A stretch of 32,000 nt of DNA from an uncultured Bacilli bacterium (GCA_934086185.1 CAKOHW010000001.1:75966-107965), one strand, 5' to 3'; positions 1,011-24,319 are shown, numbered from the stretch's first letter. The notes: generated by a model from the sequence alone, not told the origin. Numbers and translations: made by a program.

Positions 1011-2507
1011 CTATATAGATTTCTTTAATCTAATTATAAATTCTTTACATAGTTTCATATTATCATTACCAAAGTTAACGTTCAAATAATTTATAAATTC
1101 ATCTAATTCATTTTTTATAAATGCTAAATTTAATTGTTCGAACTTTCTTAATATTTTACTTGATATTAAGTAATCAATGGCATCTACTTCAGTACCACCA
1201 CAAGCGATAAATGATGGAACAAACTCTTCTATTTGTCTCATGATACGGTTACCAAAAGATATTCTAAAATGTTCTATTATATATTGATCCAATTCTTCAA
1301 GTTTATTTCTCATTTCACTAGTTAATGGATACTTTTCTTTTGCTTCATCAAATAATTTTTCGAAATGTTCATCTCTAATATTTATTGGATCTGTTTTTTC
1401 AATATCGAATTTTGCACATTTTTCATTAATATCTATTGGCATAGCACGGTCATAAACCTTATCAGTTACCATAAATGTTGAATCATCGTTATTTATTGTT
1501 CCTATATACCACATGTTACCAGGTAATGTAAAATTACCTCCTACAATCTTCTTAGGATCACTTTCCCAAGGAGTTGCAACTAAGTTTACTTTCCATTCGC
1601 TCTTACTTGGCATTTCCATAATAGATAACATTTCAGCAAAGTAATATTCTACACGTGCTATATTCATTTCATCTAGTATTGTTATATATATTTTTTCATT
1701 ATATGTTGCTTCATACATCTTACTTAATAATTCTGTTTCATTAAATCTTTTTGTAAATTCGTTGAAATATCCAAATAACTCTGTTCTATCTCTCCATGAT
1801 GGTTGTACAGATGCTATTATTGAATCATTATTTAAGAATTTACCAAAAGCATATGCAAGTGATGTTTTACCTGTACCAGAAATACCTTGTAAGATTAATA
1901 TTCTTGATGCTCCAAATGCTGAGATAAATAATCTTATTAATTCTGGTGTATAGTAAAGTCCTAATTGACTAGCTGAATATGCTCTAAATTTTTCACATAT
2001 ATCTTTTAGAGTTAATGAATCATCATATTTTGTAGTATCTTTAAATCCTTCATATTTTTGATCAATTTTAGTAAGTTTAAAGAATCTACTTTCACCTTCA
2101 CCAATTTTATTTACTGGATTTCCATCTTCATCTAGTTCTACTTCTTCTTCAGCCATTGCAATTAATTTATCATTTTCTTGTTTTAATTTTATCATGTCAT
2201 AATTTAATTTTTCTACTTCTTCAAGTAAGGCATCTTGCTCATGACCTTTTTTTATTATTCTAATTATTCTTTTAATTACATAGTATATTACAAATGCAAA
2301 TAAACATATTAATAATAACAAGCATATTATTGCAATTATAATAAATACAATATTAACACTACTTTTATATTTATTAACAGTATCTATATAATCTAAAACA
2401 TTAAACATTTTAAATAAACCTTTAAAGAATTCTTTAAATATTGATAATAACCCCTCAAAGAATGGTGTTAAAAAATCCATAAAAAACTTTCCATAATTAT
2501 TACTCAT
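1011..2507 (-). CDS. McrB-family AAA+ NTPase with N-terminal transmembrane anchor and coiled coil
   Basis: Walker A ILILQGISGTGKTSLAYAFG. Walker B/McrB-type block YITILDEMNIARVEYYFAEMLSIME. NMWYIGTINNDDSTFMVTDKVYDRAM resembles the GTMN..D.S...D.AL.RR motif. The N-terminus has the hydrophobic helix VNIVFIIIAIICLLLLICLFAFVIYYVI followed by a basic stretch and a coiled coil (LEEVEKLNYDMIKLKQENDKLIAMAEEE). A strong SD (aggaggt) precedes the ATG. Confidence 0.65.
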   Translation of the reverse strand: MSNNYGKFFMDFLTPFFEGLLSIFKEFFKGLFKMFNVLDYIDTVNKYKSSVNIVFIIIAIICLLLLICLFAFVIYYVIKRIIRIIKKGHEQDALLEEVEKLNYDMIKLKQENDKLIAMAEEEVELDEDGNPVNKIGEGESRFFKLTKIDQKYEGFKDTTKYDDSLTLKDICEKFRAYSASQLGLYYTPELIRLFISAFGASRILILQGISGTGKTSLAYAFGKFLNNDSIIASVQPSWRDRTELFGYFNEFTKRFNETELLSKMYEATYNEKIYITILDEMNIARVEYYFAEMLSIMEMPSKSEWKVNLVATPWESDPKKIVGGNFTLPGNMWYIGTINNDDSTFMVTDKVYDRAMPIDINEKCAKFDIEKTDPINIRDEHFEKLFDEAKEKYPLTSEMRNKLEELDQYIIEHFRISFGNRIMRQIEEFVPSFIACGGTEVDAIDYLISSKILRKFEQLNLAFIKNELDEFINYLNVNFGNDNMKLCKEFIIRLKKSI

Positions 2508-2517
2508 ATTATACCTC

Positions 2518-3699
2518 CTATTTTATCCCCAATAATTTTTTTTCTGATATTTTACTACTCATATCTTTTATAATAAAATTCATAGACATATCTTTCCAAA
2601 CTTCCATATATTTTTCATTAACACTTAAGAAATCTTCTGGAACTACTACATTTTTCATATCCATAAACATATTATAGTTATTTGATTCAAATGTATTTTT
2701 TATATCAATATATAAATCTATATTATTAGATTTATTAAAGTTAACAAAATCATAATCTCCTCTAATTTCTTCAAAATCTACTATAAATTTTATTTTCGAT
2801 AATACTTTTTCATTTTTATTATTAAGTAATTCTAATATTTGTTCATTTGTAAAATTATCTCTTCTTATTGGAAATAATATATTATAATCTATTCCCTTTT
2901 CTAATAATTTAAATGCTGTATAGTAACAATAATCAAATGATATACTAGAGAATCTTCTATACATATCTAGTTTATTAATAACTATTTTAATATCTTTGCC
3001 ATCATAATTATCTAATTCATCTATATCGTATTCATATAATACTTTTAAATATTTATCATTTTTATTTATCTTTATATAAGAATTATGAGATTCAGTAGTC
3101 ATCATATTATTTATGATATCATTAAATTCATTATTTTTTAAAATTATATCTTTTAATTTATTTATTAAAGTTACTAGGTCTTTTTCTTTTTTAAATCTTA
3201 TTTTTTGAAAATTATCTATAACATTATTAATAACTTTTTCTATTTTCTTTGGAGTATCTATATTAGTATACTTATTATTATAAAGTATAATTGATAAATA
3301 TATTAATATTGTTAAATATAGTATTGAACTTTCTTTTTCTTTTATAATACTCTCGTTATTCTTTGAAATATAATAATCTATAATAGACATTAATATACAC
3401 GAAAGTTTTCTATTTATTTTATTATTAAATGTTATATATTCTTTTATTTTATTAAAATCACCAGTATATAAATAATATTTATCATAATATATGTTTATAA
3501 TATTTTTTACTAAATCTGTTAATTCTTCATTTGAGGCCCACAAATTTTGGTCTTGAAATTCTATATTTTTTTCTAATATACTAGAAATATTACATATACT
3601 TTTTTTAGAATATTCAATATATTCACTAATATTATCTTTCATTTTAAGCCTCTTTTCTATTCTACTTAAGATTATATCAAATAATATTTTAGATATCAA
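2518..3699 (-). CDS. hypothetical protein, first gene of the McrB-like operon
   Basis: Long minus-strand ORF with no motif I recognise. The track start at 3699 is a TTG. The in-frame ATG at 3642 (MKDNISEY) has an agagg SD 6 nt upstream and is the more likely start. The stop lies inside the SD region of the downstream McrB-like gene, suggesting an operon. Confidence 0.5.
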   Translation of the reverse strand: MISKILFDIILSRIEKRLKMKDNISEYIEYSKKSICNISSILEKNIEFQDQNLWASNEELTDLVKNIINIYYDKYYLYTGDFNKIKEYITFNNKINRKLSCILMSIIDYYISKNNESIIKEKESSILYLTILIYLSIILYNNKYTNIDTPKKIEKVINNVIDNFQKIRFKKEKDLVTLINKLKDIILKNNEFNDIINNMMTTESHNSYIKINKNDKYLKVLYEYDIDELDNYDGKDIKIVINKLDMYRRFSSISFDYCYYTAFKLLEKGIDYNILFPIRRDNFTNEQILELLNNKNEKVLSKIKFIVDFEEIRGDYDFVNFNKSNNIDLYIDIKNTFESNNYNMFMDMKNVVVPEDFLSVNEKYMEVWKDMSMNFIIKDMSSKISEKKLLGIK

Positions 3700-3766
3700 T
3701 TAGAAAAATGCATAAATACATATTTTATTGAAAGTAAAATAAAACATTTGATAAATAAATCAAATG

Positions 3767-4504
3767 TTAACATATTTCTTTAATGCTATTTAAGAATTTT
3801 TTACTGTTTAAATATAATCCTGTATATCTATCATAATATATGTTTATAAATAAATTTATATTATTTATTACTTTTTCACTTATTTTTAATTCACTTATAC
3901 TACTTATATCTATTAAATAGTATAACCTTAACATTTTTAATGTCTTTTCATCATATATGTATTCGTTAGTGTAACAATTTTTACAAATATAACCACCTAT
4001 ATCTCCATCTATTGTTACTATATCTTTTTTGTTACCACATTTAGAACAACTTTCAAAATTAACTCCTACTCCTAAATAGTCTAATACTTTTAATTCATAT
4101 ATATTTGTTAATACTAGTGGATTTAAGTTATCATTAAGTTTAAGTATAGTATTAATAAATAATTCATATAATTTTTCATAATCATTTGTTTGTTTTGCTA
4201 CTTGGTTAGTTAGTTCTACTATGTAACTTAAATAACTTATTGCTTCTAAACTTGTTTTAATATTATTTAAATCATTTATAACACTAGCTTCTTTAATATA
4301 ATGAAGATTGTTATTATTTTTTTTATTTATTATAAATTTACCATATGTAAATTTTGTAGTATTAACTCTTAGATTACTTTTTAAAGATTTAGCACCTTTA
4401 GCGATACATCCTATAATACCATCTTTTGTAAATATATTAATTATTTTAGATGTATCTCCGTAATCTACTACATTAAATATAAATCCTTCTATACTGTCTA
4501 ACAT
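3767..4504 (-). CDS. recO: DNA repair protein RecO
   Basis: N-terminal OB-fold pattern (EGFIFNVVDYGDTSKIINIFTKDGIIGCIAKGAKS). C-terminal zinc motif CSKCGN...YICKNCY. Conserved position after era-yqzL. Confidence 0.85.
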   Translation of the reverse strand: MLDSIEGFIFNVVDYGDTSKIINIFTKDGIIGCIAKGAKSLKSNLRVNTTKFTYGKFIINKKNNNNLHYIKEASVINDLNNIKTSLEAISYLSYIVELTNQVAKQTNDYEKLYELFINTILKLNDNLNPLVLTNIYELKVLDYLGVGVNFESCSKCGNKKDIVTIDGDIGGYICKNCYTNEYIYDEKTLKMLRLYYLIDISSISELKISEKVINNINLFINIYYDRYTGLYLNSKKFLNSIKEIC

Positions 4505-4508
4505 TTTA

Positions 4509-4586
4509 TCACTTCTTTTTATATTCTAAATAATATTCTATTTTTCCAGTTTTTTTAAATAATTCCCATAATTCACGTTTTTCCAT
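4509..4586 (-). CDS. yqzL: YqzL-like small protein (25 aa)
   Basis: Below the ORF-track size cutoff. My translation is MEKRELWELFKKTGKIEYYLEYKKK*. The W.LF..TG.I..YL.YK pattern and the position between era and recO match the Bacillus yqzL arrangement as I recall it. An aaggg SD lies ~9 nt upstream. The stop is 5 nt before the recO ATG. Confidence 0.55.
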   Translation of the reverse strand: MEKRELWELFKKTGKIEYYLEYKKK

Positions 4587-4632
4587 AATAATTAACCCTT
4601 TCTAATTAAGTATTGGTTAATATATGAAAAAA

Positions 4633-5430
4633 TTATTCACTATTTTTTAAATTTTGTTTTACTATTTCAAATAGATAGTATATATATGGCATTTTATATT
4701 TGTTCATGTAATTGATAATACTTTCTATTTCATTTTTTTTCATTTCTTTATTATTCTTTTTAATTACATTAATAAATTCATTTAATTTTAATTTATTATC
4801 ATACATATGATATTTTTCTAAATAAATGTTTACATTGTCTATTATAAAGTTAGAAAATATTTCATTATTATTTTTTAAATAATATATTAGTAAATTACTA
4901 TCCCATCCTAATACTTGGTAGTATTCATATATATCAAATGGTTTATCATTTACTAAGTCATCACTTATTTTATCTACTACTTCTTTTACCTTATCTAAAT
5001 TTTCTTTATTAAATGTATTTTCTCTTTTTAAGAATTTTCTAAGAGTTGTTTTTTCTTCTTTTGATAAATAATAATGTTCAGTATTGTTTATAAATTTTAT
5101 AAAATTATTATAGTCAATATTATTTGTTTCTATATATTCTTTTATATTATGTTTATCTTCTTTTATGTAATTATTTATTATATTTAGTAGAATTTCTGCT
5201 TCTTTTCTTTTATTAATTTTTTTGTTTTCAGTTTTATTTTTGAATTTTAAGTTATATTCTAAATATAATTTATTAATTTTTTTACTATCTTTTAATTCAT
5301 TTAAATAATCATTAACTATTTCTTTATATTCATTTAAAGTAATATTTTCTTTTTTTATAAATTCTTCTAATTTTTTTAATTCTCCGTTAGATTCGATATA
5401 AAATTTTAAATACTCTTCTTTTTTACTCAT
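4633..5430 (-). CDS. hypothetical Lys/Asn/Glu-rich protein
   Basis: 265-aa ORF. Its ATG overlaps the era stop by 8 nt (gATGAGTAAaa), which suggests translational coupling. No recognisable motif and low-complexity composition. Confidence 0.45.
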   Translation of the reverse strand: MSKKEEYLKFYIESNGELKKLEEFIKKENITLNEYKEIVNDYLNELKDSKKINKLYLEYNLKFKNKTENKKINKRKEAEILLNIINNYIKEDKHNIKEYIETNNIDYNNFIKFINNTEHYYLSKEEKTTLRKFLKRENTFNKENLDKVKEVVDKISDDLVNDKPFDIYEYYQVLGWDSNLLIYYLKNNNEIFSNFIIDNVNIYLEKYHMYDNKLKLNEFINVIKKNNKEMKKNEIESIINYMNKYKMPYIYYLFEIVKQNLKNSE

Positions 5431-6304
5431 CTATAATACCAAATTCTTTTAAATATCTTTCTTTATCTCGCCAATTTTCAATTGTTTTAACATATAATTC
5501 TAAATAAACTTGTTTTCCTAATCTATTTTCTATATCTACTCTAGCACGAGAACCTATTTCTTTTAACATACTACCATGTTTACCGATTATTATTTTTTTA
5601 AGTGATGCTCTACTTACAATTATATCTACACTAATATTAACTATATTAGTTTTTTCTTGATATGATGTTGTAACACATGTTACTGAGTGTGGTACTTCAT
5701 CATTTGTTAGAGATAGTATTTTTTCTCTTACGAATTCGCTTGCTAAAAAATATTTACTAGCATTTGTTATTATTCCGTCATCGTAATATTTAACATTATC
5801 ATTTAAATATGTTTTTAATACTTTTATTAATCTATCTACATTATCATTTTTTAATGCTGATATTGGTATTATTTCTGCAAAGTCATATAAATCTTTATAT
5901 GTATTTATTGAAGACATTATTTGTTCATCGTTCATTTTATCAATTTTGTTTAAGATTAATATTACTGGAACTTCAATATTTTTTAATGCATTTATAATAA
6001 ATTTATCTCCTTTACCAAAGCCACTTGATGCATCTACTAAAAATAAAATAACATCTATATCATCTAAAGAGTTGTAAGCTTCTTTATTTAATTCTTTTCC
6101 TAGTTTATCTACTGGTTTATGTATTCCTGGGGTATCTACAAATACTATTTGAGTATCTTTATCGTTATATACTCCATGTATGGAATTTCTTGTTGTACCA
6201 GCAACATCACTAACTATTGCAATTTTATTATTTACTAATGTGTTTAATAATGTACTTTTACCAGTATTCGGTCTACCAATGATACTTACGAATCCACTTT
6301 TCAT
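5423..6304 (-). CDS. era: GTPase Era
   Basis: MKSGFVSIIGRPNTGKSTLLN (G1), DTPG (G3), NKID (G4), and a C-terminal KH domain (IIIGKHGSMLKEIG). The track ORF extends to 6349, but the ATG at 6304 has a ggag SD 8 nt upstream and gives the canonical Era N-terminus. Confidence 0.93.
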   Translation of the reverse strand: MKSGFVSIIGRPNTGKSTLLNTLVNNKIAIVSDVAGTTRNSIHGVYNDKDTQIVFVDTPGIHKPVDKLGKELNKEAYNSLDDIDVILFLVDASSGFGKGDKFIINALKNIEVPVILILNKIDKMNDEQIMSSINTYKDLYDFAEIIPISALKNDNVDRLIKVLKTYLNDNVKYYDDGIITNASKYFLASEFVREKILSLTNDEVPHSVTCVTTSYQEKTNIVNISVDIIVSRASLKKIIIGKHGSMLKEIGSRARVDIENRLGKQVYLELYVKTIENWRDKERYLKEFGIIDE

Positions 6305-19754: not shown

Positions 19755-20888
19755 TTAGTAATTATACTTTCTCTCTAAATCTGTTTTTAAATTTGTATTA
19801 CTCATTTTTAAGTAACCTTTATAACTACCAGAACTTCTTAAATATTTTTCATAGTCATATAAATAAAGATTATCTAATTTTTTATTAATTCTTCTAATAG
19901 TTTTATTATTATACCTTATAAGCAATTTATTATTTTTATCAATTTTAAATACATAGCCTAAAAAACTAATGCCATTATTTAATTTATATATATTAGATTT
20001 AGCATTTGTAGATAGTTTTAATTCATTTATCTTTTTTTCTATTAATTTAAAATTTTCTTTTAATTTTTCTTTATCTGTATCTATAATTAATAAATCATCC
20101 ATATACCTAATATAATATTTATATTTTAATTCATCTTTAATAAAGTGATCTACATCATTTAAATAAAATATTGCTAGTATTTGACTTGTCATATTTCCTA
20201 TTGGTAAGCCTTTATTATATTCATATAATGGAATTTCATTAATTGTTTTTATTTTTTTAGTTTTTTCATTATCACTTATGTTTAGACTTTTTATATAATT
20301 TATTTTTTCTTTTTTTAGAAATTCTATTCTTTCATTAACATATTTTTCATTAGTAGAATTAATAATTATTTTTAATAGACTTAATGCTTTTTTATCTTTT
20401 ATATATTTTTTTATTTTTTTGAATATGATTTCGTGATCAATATTATAAAAGTATTTTTTTATATCAATTTTTAATATATATATATCTTTATTTAAATATT
20501 TTAATTTATTTATATATTCTATAAATTTTTTAAAAGCGTAACTACTTCCTTTATTAATTCTGGTTGCAACATTAGTATCAATTAATTTACTTTCAAGGCA
20601 TGGTAAAAGTATATATTTACTTACTAAGTGATTTACCAATTTATCAGGAATATTTTCACTCATTATTATTCTATATTTTGGATCTCTTATCATAAATATT
20701 CTATAATAACTAAATTTATACTCGCCTTTATAAAGTTTTGTTAAAATATTAAAAATGTTAGTGTTTAAATTCAATCTAAAATTATAAACTGCCTCTTTAT
20801 TTTTACAATTTCTTTTTATTTTATGAAACATATTTAAAGCATGTTCATAAACTAATATTTCATTATATATATTATCAATTCTTTTCAT
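19755..20888 (-). CDS. DGR-type reverse transcriptase
   Basis: RT motifs are RIIMSENIPDKLVNHLV, ILKIDIKKYFYNIDH, LPIGNMTSQILAIFYLN (the DGR-diagnostic IGxxxSQ in place of the group II intron motif) and YIRYMDDLLII (YMDD). There is no maturase or endonuclease domain. It lies next to the TR/VR pair. Confidence 0.9.
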   Translation of the reverse strand: MKRIDNIYNEILVYEHALNMFHKIKRNCKNKEAVYNFRLNLNTNIFNILTKLYKGEYKFSYYRIFMIRDPKYRIIMSENIPDKLVNHLVSKYILLPCLESKLIDTNVATRINKGSSYAFKKFIEYINKLKYLNKDIYILKIDIKKYFYNIDHEIIFKKIKKYIKDKKALSLLKIIINSTNEKYVNERIEFLKKEKINYIKSLNISDNEKTKKIKTINEIPLYEYNKGLPIGNMTSQILAIFYLNDVDHFIKDELKYKYYIRYMDDLLIIDTDKEKLKENFKLIEKKINELKLSTNAKSNIYKLNNGISFLGYVFKIDKNNKLLIRYNNKTIRRINKKLDNLYLYDYEKYLRSSGSYKGYLKMSNTNLKTDLERKYNY

Positions 20889-21222
20889 CTTTATAATCTA
20901 AACTATATATAATATTTCTAATTTCACCTAACATTTTTACGCATGATAAAAATCTTTTCTTTATTATTAATTTTTTTGTAAAAATCACTTCTAAATAAAA
21001 GTCTATCATCATAATATTTGATTTTATATCATTAATATATTTTTGTCTAATGTTTCCTTTATTAATACTAACTTTTGTAGTATTTTTTATCATTTCATAA
21101 TATTCGTCTATTATTTTTGTTCTTAATTGTTTTTCATTTTTAGGAAAAGATGGCACTATATATTGTTCAAAATATACTAGGAATGCTTTTTCTTTGCCTA
21201 ATACTATAAATTTATCATTCAT
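20875..21222 (-). CDS. avd: Avd-like accessory variability determinant (small helical bundle protein)
   Basis: 115 aa, basic, with a helical heptad-like pattern. It overlaps the RT start by 14 nt, the typical Avd position immediately 5' of the RT. The assignment rests on size, position and composition, not on a strong motif. Confidence 0.6.
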   Translation of the reverse strand: MNDKFIVLGKEKAFLVYFEQYIVPSFPKNEKQLRTKIIDEYYEMIKNTTKVSINKGNIRQKYINDIKSNIMMIDFYLEVIFTKKLIIKKRFLSCVKMLGEIRNIIYSLDYKDEKN

Positions 21223-21610
21223 ACTTCTCTCTTTCTATTCTTTGAATAGTATAGTAACAAATTTATAATAATTTTTGTCAAACTTTGTCGATAATATGCT
21301 TTTTTGCGTTTAAAAGATTAAAATTCGAATCATAATTAATGTATATTTGAATTTTCGACACAAAAATATGTATTTTTAGAATAATGTATATTAATAACTT
21401 TAAATCTACAAATTAAAAACTACGTCAAATAAAAAAGATTACAATTTATAATAAATGTCTTTTCACAATAATATTACTAGCACATTTATATTTTGTAATC
21501 TAATATTTAGGTTTTAGCCAAGGAATTTTGCTTGTTTCAGGTAGGCATCTCTCCAGCATAGCACATAAGTGTTATGAGATAGCCATTAAATATTTGAAAA
21601 TATTTCTTGA

Positions 21611-21735
21611 AATTGCGGGACGGGCACCAATGTTGTTGTCATTGTTGACGTTGTTGTTGTTCAAGTTGCCATCATTGTTCACGTTGAACGCGTTGTCGTT
21701 GTTGTTGTTGAAGTTGGAGCGAGACAAAGACCAAT
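21611..21735 (-). repeat. DGR template repeat (TR), non-coding
   Basis: 125 nt, collinear with 22461-22585 (offset 850). 106 positions are identical. All 19 mismatches are T on the plus strand here, meaning A on the minus (sense) strand. In the VR frame it reads WSLSRSNFNNNNDNAFNVNNDGNLNNNNVNNDNNIGARPAI, with 18 AAY codons. The 76-aa plus-strand ORF 21528-21758 over it is spurious. Confidence 0.92.
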
Positions 21736-21835
21736 CTGTAAAGAGAAGAAAATACTAACTCACCCTAACACCAAGAAGACGACTGCCTCATTAAAGAGCA
21801 AAATCCCTAAATAAATATATAAAATATATTAATAT

Positions 21836-22210
21836 TTATTCCATTATTATTTGTTGAATTGATTTTATCAAATTCAACATTTCGTCACTTTTCATAATAT
21901 CCAAATCTTTTGACAAGATTAATTCATTTATTTTTTTTAATTTTGTTTTTTCATCAATATTATCTGGGATGATAATTTTATAATCGATGCTTTTTTGTTT
22001 TAATAATTCTTCATATTTTGCTATTGAATTTTTTGGAAAACCACATTTATCACAAAAATTTGAAAATTTGGTTAATCTAAAATCAAACATTTCATTCAGT
22101 AATATTGCATCACTATCTAATGCAATATAAAAGTTTCCACATTCAAATAGATATATCGTTGTTTCATTTTTTTCTTTTAAACTTAAATACTTATCATATA
22201 TTTTACTCAT
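21836..22210 (-). CDS. stand-alone MutS domain I (mismatch-binding domain)-like protein, DGR accessory candidate
   Basis: IYDKYLSLKEKNETTIYLFECGNFYIALDSDAILLNEMFDFRLTKF...CGFPKNSIAKYEELLKQKSIDYKII is collinear with the MutS N-terminus as I recall it (M..QYL.lK......lLfFR.GDFYE.F..DA......L.I.LT.R....PM.G.P......Y...L...G..V.I). The Phe of the F-x-E mismatch wedge is kept (NFY) and the Glu is replaced by Ile. It is only 124 aa, with no connector, clamp or ATPase domains. Confidence 0.7.
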   Translation of the reverse strand: MSKIYDKYLSLKEKNETTIYLFECGNFYIALDSDAILLNEMFDFRLTKFSNFCDKCGFPKNSIAKYEELLKQKSIDYKIIIPDNIDEKTKLKKINELILSKDLDIMKSDEMLNLIKSIQQIIME

Positions 22211-22313: not shown

Positions 22314-22339
22314 GTCCTGTGGAAGGGTTTCCACAGGAC
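22314..22339. other. GC-containing 10-bp hairpin downstream of the DGR target gene
   Basis: gtcctgtgga-agggtt-tccacaggac. It is unusually GC-rich for this genome. The minus-strand side has no T-run, while the plus-strand side has tttt. Confidence 0.55.
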
Positions 22340-22365
22340 TTTTACTAGTTTGCAGTTCAATGTCC

Positions 22366-22383
22366 GTAGGACTAAAGTCCTAC
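22366..22383. other. 7-bp stem / 4-nt loop hairpin 2 nt after the target-gene stop
   Basis: gtaggac-taaa-gtcctac. It shares the gtcct/aggac core with the 22314-22339 hairpin. No T-run follows on the minus strand. Confidence 0.5.
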
Positions 22384-22385
22384 TA

Positions 22386-24260
22386 TTAACTCTCCGTTAC
22401 TTTATATGGATTTCCTATTGTTCCATCTCCACTTGCTATTTGTGCACCAGTGGCTAAAGTAACTGCGGGACGGGCACCAAAGTTGCTGTCATCGTAGACG
22501 CCGTCGTTGTTCAAGCTGCCATCATCGTTCACGCTGAACGCGAGGTCGTCGTAGTCGTCGAAGCGGGAGCGAGACAAAGACCAATAATATGATTGTGCAT
22601 TGTCATATAAATAATAGAATTTATTAGAATAACCAGCCTGTCCTCCTGCGTATGCTATTTCATCTGCTGTTAATGTTCCTATATAATCACTTATGCTGTC
22701 TTCTTCACTTGAACATTTTAATGTTGCGTTTCTTTCTACACCTTTTCCCCATAATCTTTTTCCTGCTGTGTAATAATAAGTTCCATAATCATTTTCTATC
22801 TGTGTTACTTCTGCGTCTGTTAATAACACTCCAGTTGATGAATTATATCTATAATTATCACTTCCACCTAAGCACCATTTTTCATTTTTTAATAATGATT
22901 TCTTATTTTCTAATCCACTTGATGTATACCATGCTTTTAATGTTGTATATAATCCTCCACTATAATTTTTATAATCTGCGTAATATTTGCTATTAATTGT
23001 TTTATAACCATATGCTATTGTTGCTCCATTATTTATTAAAGCTGATTTGGTATCTGATGATGTTATTGTACTACATAATCCTTCTTTGGCTAAGATTATT
23101 TTTATAGATCCATCGCCTTCAACACGTACTATTCTCCAACACATATTATTAAATTCTATGTAATTGTCTTTGACTCCACCTCTATAATAATAAGAGTCGC
23201 CATAATCATCAGTTGTTGCCGATAATGTTGCTTCTGTCGAATATGATACTGCTGACACTCTTTTTGCTTTCATTGTTATTGAACTTGTACTGCTTGCTGG
23301 TGCTGTTGTTACTTTATATATACTTGATAAATTTGTTGTTGTTTTTTGAGTATTTGTACTTGCTGAATTACTACTTGCACTTGTTGATACTATATATTTT
23401 CCTACCAATGTTGTATTACATGTTCCATCATTGTATTTACATGTTGTAACTCCTGTTAATGTGAATTTACCAGTACTTTCATCTATTGTATACCCTGTTC
23501 CATATGTCCAGTAATATCCTTGATATGTTGTTGTTATGCTTACTGAACTTTCGCTTGTTGCTTCATCTACTTGATCAGTATAATATTTATAACTTACTGC
23601 TTGTGCAGGTGTTGTTAATGGAGTTGCACTAAATGTTGTTCCATTTTTTGCTAATTTTGCATTGTTTATTATTGCATATGATAATGATGTTTGTTCATAT
23701 GGCATGAATTCTCCATTACTGTTTTTACCAAATATTTGTAATTTTGCTTGTAATACTTTTCCCATATCTACACTTTGATCTGTATTTGTATCTTTATATG
23801 TAAATTTAAATGTGTATGTATGAGTTTTTTTAGGTTCTATTTCATTTGTTATTAATTGTTTTATTCCATTTGGAAATGTTGTTTCTGTTGTTACTTCATT
23901 ACATGCTATTGTTCCATCTGTTGTGCAATTTAATGTATATTTAACATCATCTACTCTTTCAAATGTATTTATTACATCTATTAAATATACTCCATATTCT
24001 ACATTTGCATTTCCTTCGTTTTTTACTGTGAATGTTTTAGTATATACTGTATCACTTGGTAATAAGTTTTCTCCTCCAATTACTCCATCACTTCCATCGC
24101 CATATACTAATTTTAAATCTGCTGTTGTTACACTGATGCTCTTATCGTTAGTGTTTCCTTGTATTCTTGTTAAAAAGTATGCATATGTTAATCCTAACAA
24201 TGCTAATAATACTATTGTTATTCCTACTACACTAACTATGATTTTTTGTTTTCTATTCAT
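22386..24260 (-). CDS. secreted DGR target protein: SipW/TasA-type signal and N-domain, Thr/Ser-rich linker, C-terminal lectin-like VR domain
   Basis: The likely start is ATG 24260 (MNRKQK) with an aggagg SD; the track extends it to 24293. The signal region IVLLALLGLTYAYFLT resembles the SipW-dependent (TasA/camelysin-type) signal motif ..GTYAYF.. as I recall it. The middle holds S/T-rich tracts (STSASSNSASTNTQKTTTN, APASSTSS). At the C-terminus, ..LTADEIAYAGG...YYWSLS...GARPAV resembles the DUF1566/C-type-lectin-fold ends used by DGR targets. The VR is followed by a 24-aa tail (TLATGAQIASGDGTIGNPYKVTES). Confidence 0.85.
   Translation of the reverse strand: MNRKQKIIVSVVGITIVLLALLGLTYAYFLTRIQGNTNDKSISVTTADLKLVYGDGSDGVIGGENLLPSDTVYTKTFTVKNEGNANVEYGVYLIDVINTFERVDDVKYTLNCTTDGTIACNEVTTETTFPNGIKQLITNEIEPKKTHTYTFKFTYKDTNTDQSVDMGKVLQAKLQIFGKNSNGEFMPYEQTSLSYAIINNAKLAKNGTTFSATPLTTPAQAVSYKYYTDQVDEATSESSVSITTTYQGYYWTYGTGYTIDESTGKFTLTGVTTCKYNDGTCNTTLVGKYIVSTSASSNSASTNTQKTTTNLSSIYKVTTAPASSTSSITMKAKRVSAVSYSTEATLSATTDDYGDSYYYRGGVKDNYIEFNNMCWRIVRVEGDGSIKIILAKEGLCSTITSSDTKSALINNGATIAYGYKTINSKYYADYKNYSGGLYTTLKAWYTSSGLENKKSLLKNEKWCLGGSDNYRYNSSTGVLLTDAEVTQIENDYGTYYYTAGKRLWGKGVERNATLKCSSEEDSISDYIGTLTADEIAYAGGQAGYSNKFYYLYDNAQSYYWSLSRSRFDDYDDLAFSVNDDGSLNNDGVYDDSNFGARPAVTLATGAQIASGDGTIGNPYKVTES
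22461..22585 (-). repeat. DGR variable repeat (VR) inside the 3' end of the target gene
   Basis: Encodes WSLSRSRFDDYDDLAFSVNDDGSLNNDGVYDDSNFGARPAV. It differs from the TR only at TR-adenine positions: 13 A>G, 4 A>T and 2 A>C on the sense strand. The 3' end carries a GC-rich IMH-like tract, GGTGCCCGTCCCGC, identical in TR and VR. Homology stops abruptly at both ends. Confidence 0.92.
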
Positions 24261-24319
24261 ATTAACTCCTCCTAAAAAATAAAATACCAACAACTTCGTG
24301 TATTGTATTTTCTAAAATA

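Follow-up and report, generated by a model that had tools for sequence, protein, structure and literature searches.

A covarying RNA helix encloses the template repeat of a diversity-generating retroelement from an uncultured Bacilli bacterium and probably corresponds to the cPRT-Stop duplex of BPP-1

Diversity-generating retroelements (DGRs) copy a template repeat (TR) into a variable repeat (VR) by means of a reverse transcriptase (RT), and the RNA that carries the TR has been solved by cryo-EM for the DGR of phage BPP-1 (Handa, Biswas, ..., Paul, Ghosh; bioRxiv 10.1101/2023.10.23.563531). In that RNA, the spacer downstream of the TR begins with an Avd-binding stem-loop and continues with a primer strand, Sp47-56, which is paired to the TR 3′ end and carries the priming adenosine A56; after a 2-nt linker, Sp59-70 pairs with 11 nt upstream of the TR to give the 11-bp cPRT-Stop duplex. 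Past the duplex come a 2-bp stem-loop, adenosines in A-minor contact with G-C pairs of the duplex, a single-stranded 'thumb ring' and a long bRT-binding stem-loop. The same work reported that compensatory mutations in the duplex failed to restore activity, and it predicted upstream/downstream duplexes in 207 of 278 Avd-type DGRs (mean 13 bp), 47 of them with an adjacent stem-loop and then adenosines; these were single-sequence MxFold2 predictions on concatenations of 40 nt and 100 nt (bioRxiv 10.1101/2023.10.23.563531). Among the structured RNA motifs RT-1 to RT-19, RT-10 is the BPP-1 spacer, and other members were speculated to act in DGRs (Weinberg et al. 2017). The upstream:spacer duplex of DGR RNAs is hence already known, by structure and by wide prediction in 2023-24. 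Here, we describe a further example of this known mechanism in a 32,000-nt stretch of DNA from an uncultured Bacilli bacterium (GCA_934086185.1, CAKOHW010000001.1:75966-107965; the whole stretch is called the window below), in which the arms around the TR of a DGR form a real, evolutionarily conserved RNA helix with its pairing under selection.

All coordinates count along the 32,000-nt window, and the sense strand of the DGR, on which the features of the element lie, is the minus strand. The original prediction, made from this DNA alone, held that the segments 21521-21547 and 21784-21808 are richer in GC than their surroundings and complementary, forming a 12-bp helix with one G-U followed by inner helices of 3 and 5 bp, and that they close an RNA domain of about 290 nt around the TR. 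Both arm sequences were found exactly as quoted, and the GC content was 30-45% across 21490-21810 against 13-22% around this block. When the minus strand of 21480-21840 was folded with RNAfold, the outer helix appeared in both the minimum free energy (MFE) and the centroid structures: the 5′ strand AGGGAUUUUGCU (21808-21797) pairs with the 3′ strand AGCAAAAUUCCU (21532-21521) over 12 bp, one of them G-U, and encloses the TR at 21611-21735. The 30-nt spacer core paired with the 360-nt upstream flank at -20.1 kcal/mol, as compared with -13.3 +/- 2.4 kcal/mol in shuffles, of which 1% were as good. RNAduplex applied to the whole flanks of 130/150 nt was uninformative, as long loose duplexes dominated.

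The helix was then followed through a homologue set of 80 genome loci and 12 metagenome loci, the latter with closer RTs (70-76% identity). In an alignment of the window with L001 and L002, the 3′ flank of the TR was strongly conserved and the 5′ flank could not be aligned. Iterated nhmmer searches recovered the 3′ element in at least 15 loci, with the core AAACAAG-n-UAUUUCCUUGG ... UUAGUAG ... GAAAG. When each locus was searched for the complement of the strand that follows GAAAC, a partner motif, UAGG(G/A)-n-CU, was found just upstream of the TR, and the variable middle of this 5′ motif was complementary to that of the 3′ strand from locus to locus: AUUUUGC / GCAAAAU in the window, AAACGC / GCGUUU in L012, AAUAAAC / GUUUAUU in L016, AUUGUGUC / GACACAAU in L047 and GGGGCUAAUCU / AGAUUAGCCC in L062. 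The 3′ flank is thus a conserved RNA, and the 5′ flank is conserved only as its pairing partner.

To quantify this pairing, an ungapped alignment (A4) of 61 distinct mini-constructs was built, each made of 18 nt up to the inner end of the 5′ strand, chosen with RNAduplex, and 30 nt anchored on GAAAC. Five loci (L002, L009, L025, L054 and L061) were left out and the arms of L001 were set by hand, permissive motif expressions having picked decoy helices in a few loci. The 12 bracketing pairs were standard in 93.2% of cells, as against 69.5% in shuffles (0/500), each of the 12 varied on both sides, a single column showing as many as six pair types, and the covariation score was 0.766 against 0.303 in shuffles (0/500). 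Sliding the partner by 1-3 columns lowered the pairing to 38-54%. The best-conserved pairs were the G-C pairs beside a short stem-loop (columns 7/40 and 8/39). Two controls were free of the RNAduplex choice. In the first, each spacer strand was searched for partners in the 250-nt 5′ flanks of all loci; the energies were -14.5 kcal/mol with cognate and -9.2 kcal/mol with non-cognate flanks. For 27 of 55 spacer strands, the cognate flank was the best, for 41 of 55 it was among the top three, and the window's own flank came first of 55. In the second, RNAalifold predicted the helix from a plain MAFFT alignment of the full element in eight close relatives. The 12-bp helix proposed originally, standing above shuffles in the window and covarying in its homologues, was therefore borne out, and so was the closure of a domain of about 290 nt around the TR, which is backed by this covariation and matches the duplex seen in BPP-1.

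A second, shorter pairing was found where BPP-1 has its template:primer duplex. UUUCA at the TR 3′ boundary (21608-21612) can pair, as the template side of a predicted duplex, with the primer-side strand UGAAA (21535-21539), in which GAAAC is invariant or nearly so in the 61 loci. An unconstrained partner search for the primer strand was noisy, and a motif-anchored alignment was used in its place, fixed only on UUUC (TR/VR boundary) and GAAA in 36 loci. There the four UUUC/GAAA pairs were invariant, and three extension pairs occurred as AU, UA, CG and GC; pairing reached 84% against 70% in shuffles (0/500), with a covariation score of 0.333 against 0.098. The primer strand is separated from the stop strand (the 3′ strand of the helix) by the 2-nt linker CA (21533-21534), and this GAAAC-A spacing was fixed. 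The TR adenine A21613, immediately 5′ of UUUC, is a G in the VR, which fits a first templated base at that position. By analogy with BPP-1, A21535 would be the priming adenosine, and A21613 would be the first base templated.

Following the TR 3′ end UUUCA, the spacer reads AT hairpin, conserved hairpin, UAC, UGAAA, CA, stop strand, stem-loop with UAAAU, long hairpin and U6. The conserved local hairpin GGC-U-AUCUC ... GAGAU-GCC (21544-21584) was recovered by RNAalifold with 7 pairs and shows the compensatory changes C-G to U-A and U-A to C-G; by its position, which is that of Sp3-33 in BPP-1, it is the best candidate for the Avd-binding stem-loop. The short stem-loop GG-CUAAAA-CC followed by UAAAU occupies 21505-21520; a hairpin with an A-rich pentamer was present in 54 of the 61 loci against 20 expected from shuffles, its stem changing from GGU/ACC to GGG/CCC in relatives, and the UAAAU adenosines would make A-minor contacts to the duplex as their BPP-1 counterparts do. 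The long terminal hairpin (21437-21500), with a conserved apical UAGUA...GAA, was supported in RNAalifold by 22 pairs with many double changes and is a candidate RT-binding stem-loop and/or terminator stem; a U6 tract follows it directly (21431-21436) and resembles a terminator at the 3′ end of the TR RNA, and a U-run was present in 8/8 close relatives. The original prediction had taken 21521-21610 as the functional equivalent of the BPP-1 spacer with its priming site. The match to BPP-1 and the covariation uphold this role, and the priming site very probably lies in the region 3′ of the TR; the extent had to be enlarged, as the spacer runs to about 21431.

Compared part by part with BPP-1, the likeness lies in the arrangement, and sequence similarity is undetectable. 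In both RNAs, the TR is looped out because the spacer pairs with a segment upstream of it (11 bp in BPP-1, 12 bp in the window). The TR is separated by a hairpin from a purine-rich primer strand, which pairs with the TR 3′ end, and the stop strand comes 2 nt after this primer strand. Beyond the duplex stand a very short stem-loop and unpaired adenosines, and a long interrupted hairpin closes the 3′ end of the spacer. The conserved G-C pairs also sit at the stem-loop end of the duplex, where the A-minor receptors of BPP-1 are located. In contrast to BPP-1, the upstream strand of the window is intergenic, following the MSL gene described below, whereas it is the 3′ end of avd in the phage, and the spacer of the window ends in a U-tract with about 200 nt of AT-rich DNA before avd. 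The BPP-1 RNA was solved by cryo-EM, and that of the window is predicted from sequence comparison. With respect to the 207 duplexes predicted earlier, ours is the same class of prediction, here with covariation across 61 loci of one clade.

Taken together, the segment 21808-21431 on the minus strand is probably the non-coding RNA of the DGR, made of the 5′ strand, linker, TR and spacer, with the 12-bp helix acting as a duplex of the cPRT-Stop type. The helix with its covariation, the covariation of the primer-type pairing, the conserved stem-loop with its A-run and the two spacer hairpins support this directly; protein binding, 2′-OH priming at A21535, the stop function and the A-minor contacts are carried over from BPP-1. 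In the proposed mechanism, the helix would loop out the TR and bring its 3′ end UUUCA onto the spacer strand UGAAA. The spacer hairpins would be bound by RT-Avd, cDNA synthesis would be primed in cis from the last adenosine of GAAA (A21535), the TR would be copied with adenine-specific errors, and synthesis would halt at or before the duplex, buttressed by the short stem-loop and the UAAAU adenosines.

Several observations weigh against this interpretation. The whole-domain fold of 21480-21840 has a z-score of only -1.1 and is not unusually stable, and the primer-type duplex of the window amounts to just 5 AU-rich bp (-2.5 kcal/mol). The linker from the 5′ strand to the start of the TR/VR homology (21736-21796) is 61 nt long, as compared with roughly 5-10 nt in BPP-1, so that cDNA halted at the duplex would end in a long non-homologous tail; given such a linker, the duplex may mainly set geometry. 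The failure of compensatory mutants in BPP-1 implies that pairing alone may not suffice. As the 5′ segments of alignment A4 were chosen by RNAduplex, its pair counts lean towards structure, a bias that the two controls above mitigate. No Rfam family reached its gathering score in the window or in 36 relatives, and the avd-like open reading frame (ORF) of the window gave no Pfam match even at E <= 10.

The strongest of the rival explanations accepts the helix as real and assigns it another purpose than positioning or stopping the RT, such as keeping the transcript stable, directing its processing or aiding the overall folding of the TR RNA. Covariation proves pairing and not function, the 5′ strand and the TR are joined by a long linker whose length varies from -7 to 61 nt within the clade (median 31), and the RNA resembles a separate, terminator-bounded unit, all of which would suit such a role. 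We nevertheless consider it unlikely. The fixed 2-nt spacing to the invariant GAAA is as in BPP-1, the adjoining stem-loop and adenosines together with the conserved terminal G-C pairs reproduce the cPRT-Stop geometry, and a 12-bp helix would be short for an RNase III site.

Slightly less likely still is that the composite closing stem of 12 + 3 + 5 bp, formed by 21521-21547 with 21784-21808, is the functional structure. In its favour, the closing stem continues inward in the MFE structure of 21480-21840 until it measures about 28 bp, and the inner complementarity originally noticed is indeed present in the sequence. It is, however, at chance level: the 3-bp and 5-bp helices gave -10.9 kcal/mol against -8.1 +/- 2.8 kcal/mol in shuffles, 15% of which were as good. 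The inner 5′ arms (21784-21796) lie within the linker, where a window-specific insertion of about 25 nt (alignment A6) contains the 5′ arm AGGCA, and the complementarity was absent in 6 of 7 close relatives, even though the 3′ partner GAYGCCUACCUGAAAC is invariant. The 3′ partners are also engaged elsewhere, as GCC of UGCCU pairs with GGC in the conserved local hairpin, whose neighbouring pairs covary, and UGAA belongs to the primer-type strand UGAAA, which covaries with the TR 3′ end. The inner helices were rejected as functional parts on these grounds. An AT hairpin abutting the TR 3′ end had likewise been noticed, and AAAUAUU-UUCA-AAUAUUU is indeed present at 21588-21605 and folds in the mini RNA lacking the TR. 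It is a lineage-specific insertion common to the window and L001 only, nine other close relatives being gapped there with an unstructured linker of 17-20 nt, and it too was rejected as a functional part.

A DNA-level inverted repeat bracketing the TR, such as a cruciform, a recombination site or the ends of a mobile element, would equally present complementary arms on both sides of a 260-nt segment, and its probability is negligible here. About 90 cells of alignment A4, roughly one eighth of the paired cells, are G-U, which in DNA, or on the opposite strand, would become A-C mismatches, and the helix must therefore belong to RNA of the RT-sense strand and not to a DNA palindrome. Moreover, the arm sequences drift freely with pairing kept, the 3′ arm is part of a larger conserved structured RNA, and the partner always lies on the RT-sense strand. 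Chance complementarity in AT-rich DNA, for which the low fold z-score and the many 70-75% complementary inverted repeats of the window might speak, can be dismissed since it is refuted by the covariation in 61 loci, the pairing being above window shuffles and the own flank preferred. The cPRT-Stop-type duplex thus remains the reading that we favour.

Further pairing was looked for between the linker and the interior of the TR. A motif (G/A)UCGU(U), 12-20 nt after the 5′ strand, complements a TR-internal ACGA(C/U); in the window, these are 21772-21782 and 21668-21674 on the minus strand. Read by eye, the two motifs change in step, as GUCGU/ACGAC in the window and L081, AUCGU/ACGAU in L001, L082, L083 and L089, and GUCAU/AUGAC in L085. 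A general test of pairing between linker and TR interior in 33 loci was not significant (cognate -19.6 against non-cognate -17.5, with ranks scattered). Directly 5′ of the 5′ strand, a small AT-rich hairpin with a U-run (21809-21840, minus strand) overlaps the MSL stop codon. Its stem varies among relatives (AAGUC/GACUU in L081, GGUCC/GGGCU in L083, AAAGUA/UACUUU in L001), its consensus support is weak (-1.9 kcal/mol), and it could be a terminator of MSL or a 5′ hairpin of the TR RNA.

The element was also compared with other structured RNAs. Rfam RT-14 (RF02921) matched 21448-21569 over its full length and on the correct strand, at 19.2 bits (E = 2.8) as against a gathering score of 48.1. Both RNAs carry AUUCCUU, a small hairpin, UAAA and a long hairpin with UAGUA...GAA; the RT-14 model differs in leaving the stop strand unpaired, because the partner lies beyond the TR. 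This match points to RT-14 as the spacer RNA in a sister clade of DGRs. A more distant parallel is offered by the msr-msd RNA of retrons, where the template region is closed off by the a1/a2 inverted repeats and cDNA starts from the 2′-OH of a branch-point purine beside the closing duplex. Flanking inverted repeats around a template and the proposed 2′-OH priming are common to both systems, and the BPP-1 work likewise draws the comparison with retrons. Retrons differ from this DGR in belonging to another RT clade, in having no Avd, adenine mutagenesis or VR target, and in placing the priming G at the end of the a1/a2 duplex.

The genes around the RNA identify the locus as a DGR. The target gene (22386-24293, minus strand; 635 aa) ends in a C-terminal VR (22461-22585), to which the 125-nt TR is 85% identical, and 19/19 mismatches between the two sit at TR adenines. 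It is followed by MSL, an accessory gene of 124 aa with MutS domain I only (21836-22210, minus strand; Pfam MutS_I, E = 2.4e-11), which is syntenic in L081, L083, L089 and L090-92. Beyond the RNA lies the avd-like gene (20875-21222, minus strand; 115 aa), with 61% identity to the syntenic ORF of L082, one of several syntenic ORFs that match PF22296 bAvd, and then the RT (19755-20888, minus strand; 377 aa; Pfam RVT_1, E = 3.9e-17). The RT contains the motif IGNMTSQ, which fits [LIV]GxxxSQ, a DGR signature; its homologues number more than 2500 and occur in loci with TR/VR. The adenine-specific TR/VR mismatches, the RT, MSL and the avd-like ORF tied to bAvd by homology make this a DGR, with one TR, one VR and one spacer core in the window. 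The adjoining genes are PolC and a tRNA, and the nearest relatives are gut 'Bacilli/Tenericutes' metagenome-assembled genomes; this places the element on the chromosome of a Firmicute-like organism with very AT-rich DNA. Just past the target stop codon, 120-150 nt beyond the VR, stand two perfect hairpins (22314-22339 and about 22365-22382), one of which reads GTCCTGTGGAA-GGGT-TTCCACAGGAC with 11 bp. They are reminiscent of the hairpin/cruciform elements near DGR target sites, or may be terminators.

On the minus strand, the order is target/VR, MutS_I ORF, 100 nt, TR, 388 nt, avd-like ORF and RT, as had been read from the start. Placement of the TR had been called non-canonical, which holds only relative to BPP-1, where the order is target-avd-TR-RT in contrast to target-MSL-TR-avd-RT here. 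By TR/VR detection, the TR lay 500-1100 nt upstream of the RT in most loci, and an Avd-sized ORF stood between spacer and RT in 58 of the 61 distinct loci carrying the RNA, so that TR-spacer-avd-RT is the norm of this clade. In L033, L041 and L049, the TR-spacer unit is 115-170 nt upstream of the RT, with no Avd-sized ORF between. Upstream of the RTs of L003-L009, which are 58-66% identical to that of the window, neither a TR/VR pair nor a GAAAC spacer core was found, and these loci may have a different cassette layout or contigs that are too short. Wu et al. (2018) place MSL-containing DGRs in cassette architecture D and mention RT-MutS_I fusions; the window resembles architecture D in having a small MutS-domain-I protein together with avd, and its relatives include such fusions. 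Nine RT homologues (55-58% identity) carry a C-terminal MutS domain I, namely P0082, P0087, P0089, P0092, P0095, P0096, P0098, P0106 and P0108. MutS_I as an ORF of its own upstream of the TR in the window, and fused to the RT in these homologues, forms a fission/fusion pair that would link MSL functionally to the RT.

The limits of the RNA also bear on how it is transcribed. The hairpin and U-run conserved in 8/8 close relatives, together with the roughly 200 nt of AT-rich DNA that separate them from avd, suggest that the TR RNA is a transcript separate from avd. A terminator scan did not call the long hairpin with U6, since under the rule of the scan fewer than 3 G-C pairs are counted in the stem. 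The sole promoter-like site upstream was 21871-21843, its 10/12 matches being weak evidence in such AT-rich DNA. Entire TR-spacer cassettes are tandemly repeated in some relatives. In L075, the array (2113-4613) contains 7.5 copies of a 334-nt unit with 83% matches and is flanked by the target ORF (8-1945) and avd/RT (4622-6128), and spacer cores numbered 8 in L037, 5 each in L078 and L042, and 4 in L058. It is conceivable, though we hold it to be somewhat less probable than its opposite, that the TR RNA is an autonomous, trans-acting non-coding cassette, transcribed apart from avd-RT and made modular by its own bracketing helix, with the window as the single-cassette form of a multi-template system. 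The arrays of entire cassettes fit this idea, and, if it were true, one RT-Avd would serve several template RNAs.

The present analysis gives independent evolutionary confirmation of a DGR-RNA architecture seen by cryo-EM in one phage, drawn from a large clade of uncultured gut Bacilli in which the gene order differs and MSL is present as an accessory gene. The compensatory mutants of BPP-1 had left it undecided whether pairing or sequence matters in the duplex, and the natural covariation found here shows that pairing itself is selected. The features under selection are also told apart, as the 12 compensatory pairs vary, whereas the terminal G-C pairs, the 2-nt spacing to GAAA and the stem-loop with its adenosines stay fixed. 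What is new is the covariation evidence, a map of the element with a predicted priming site, and the corrections concerning the inner helices, the AT hairpin and the extent of the spacer. The predicted priming adenosine and the RNA boundaries make this DGR and its compact RNA cassette testable and potentially reprogrammable.

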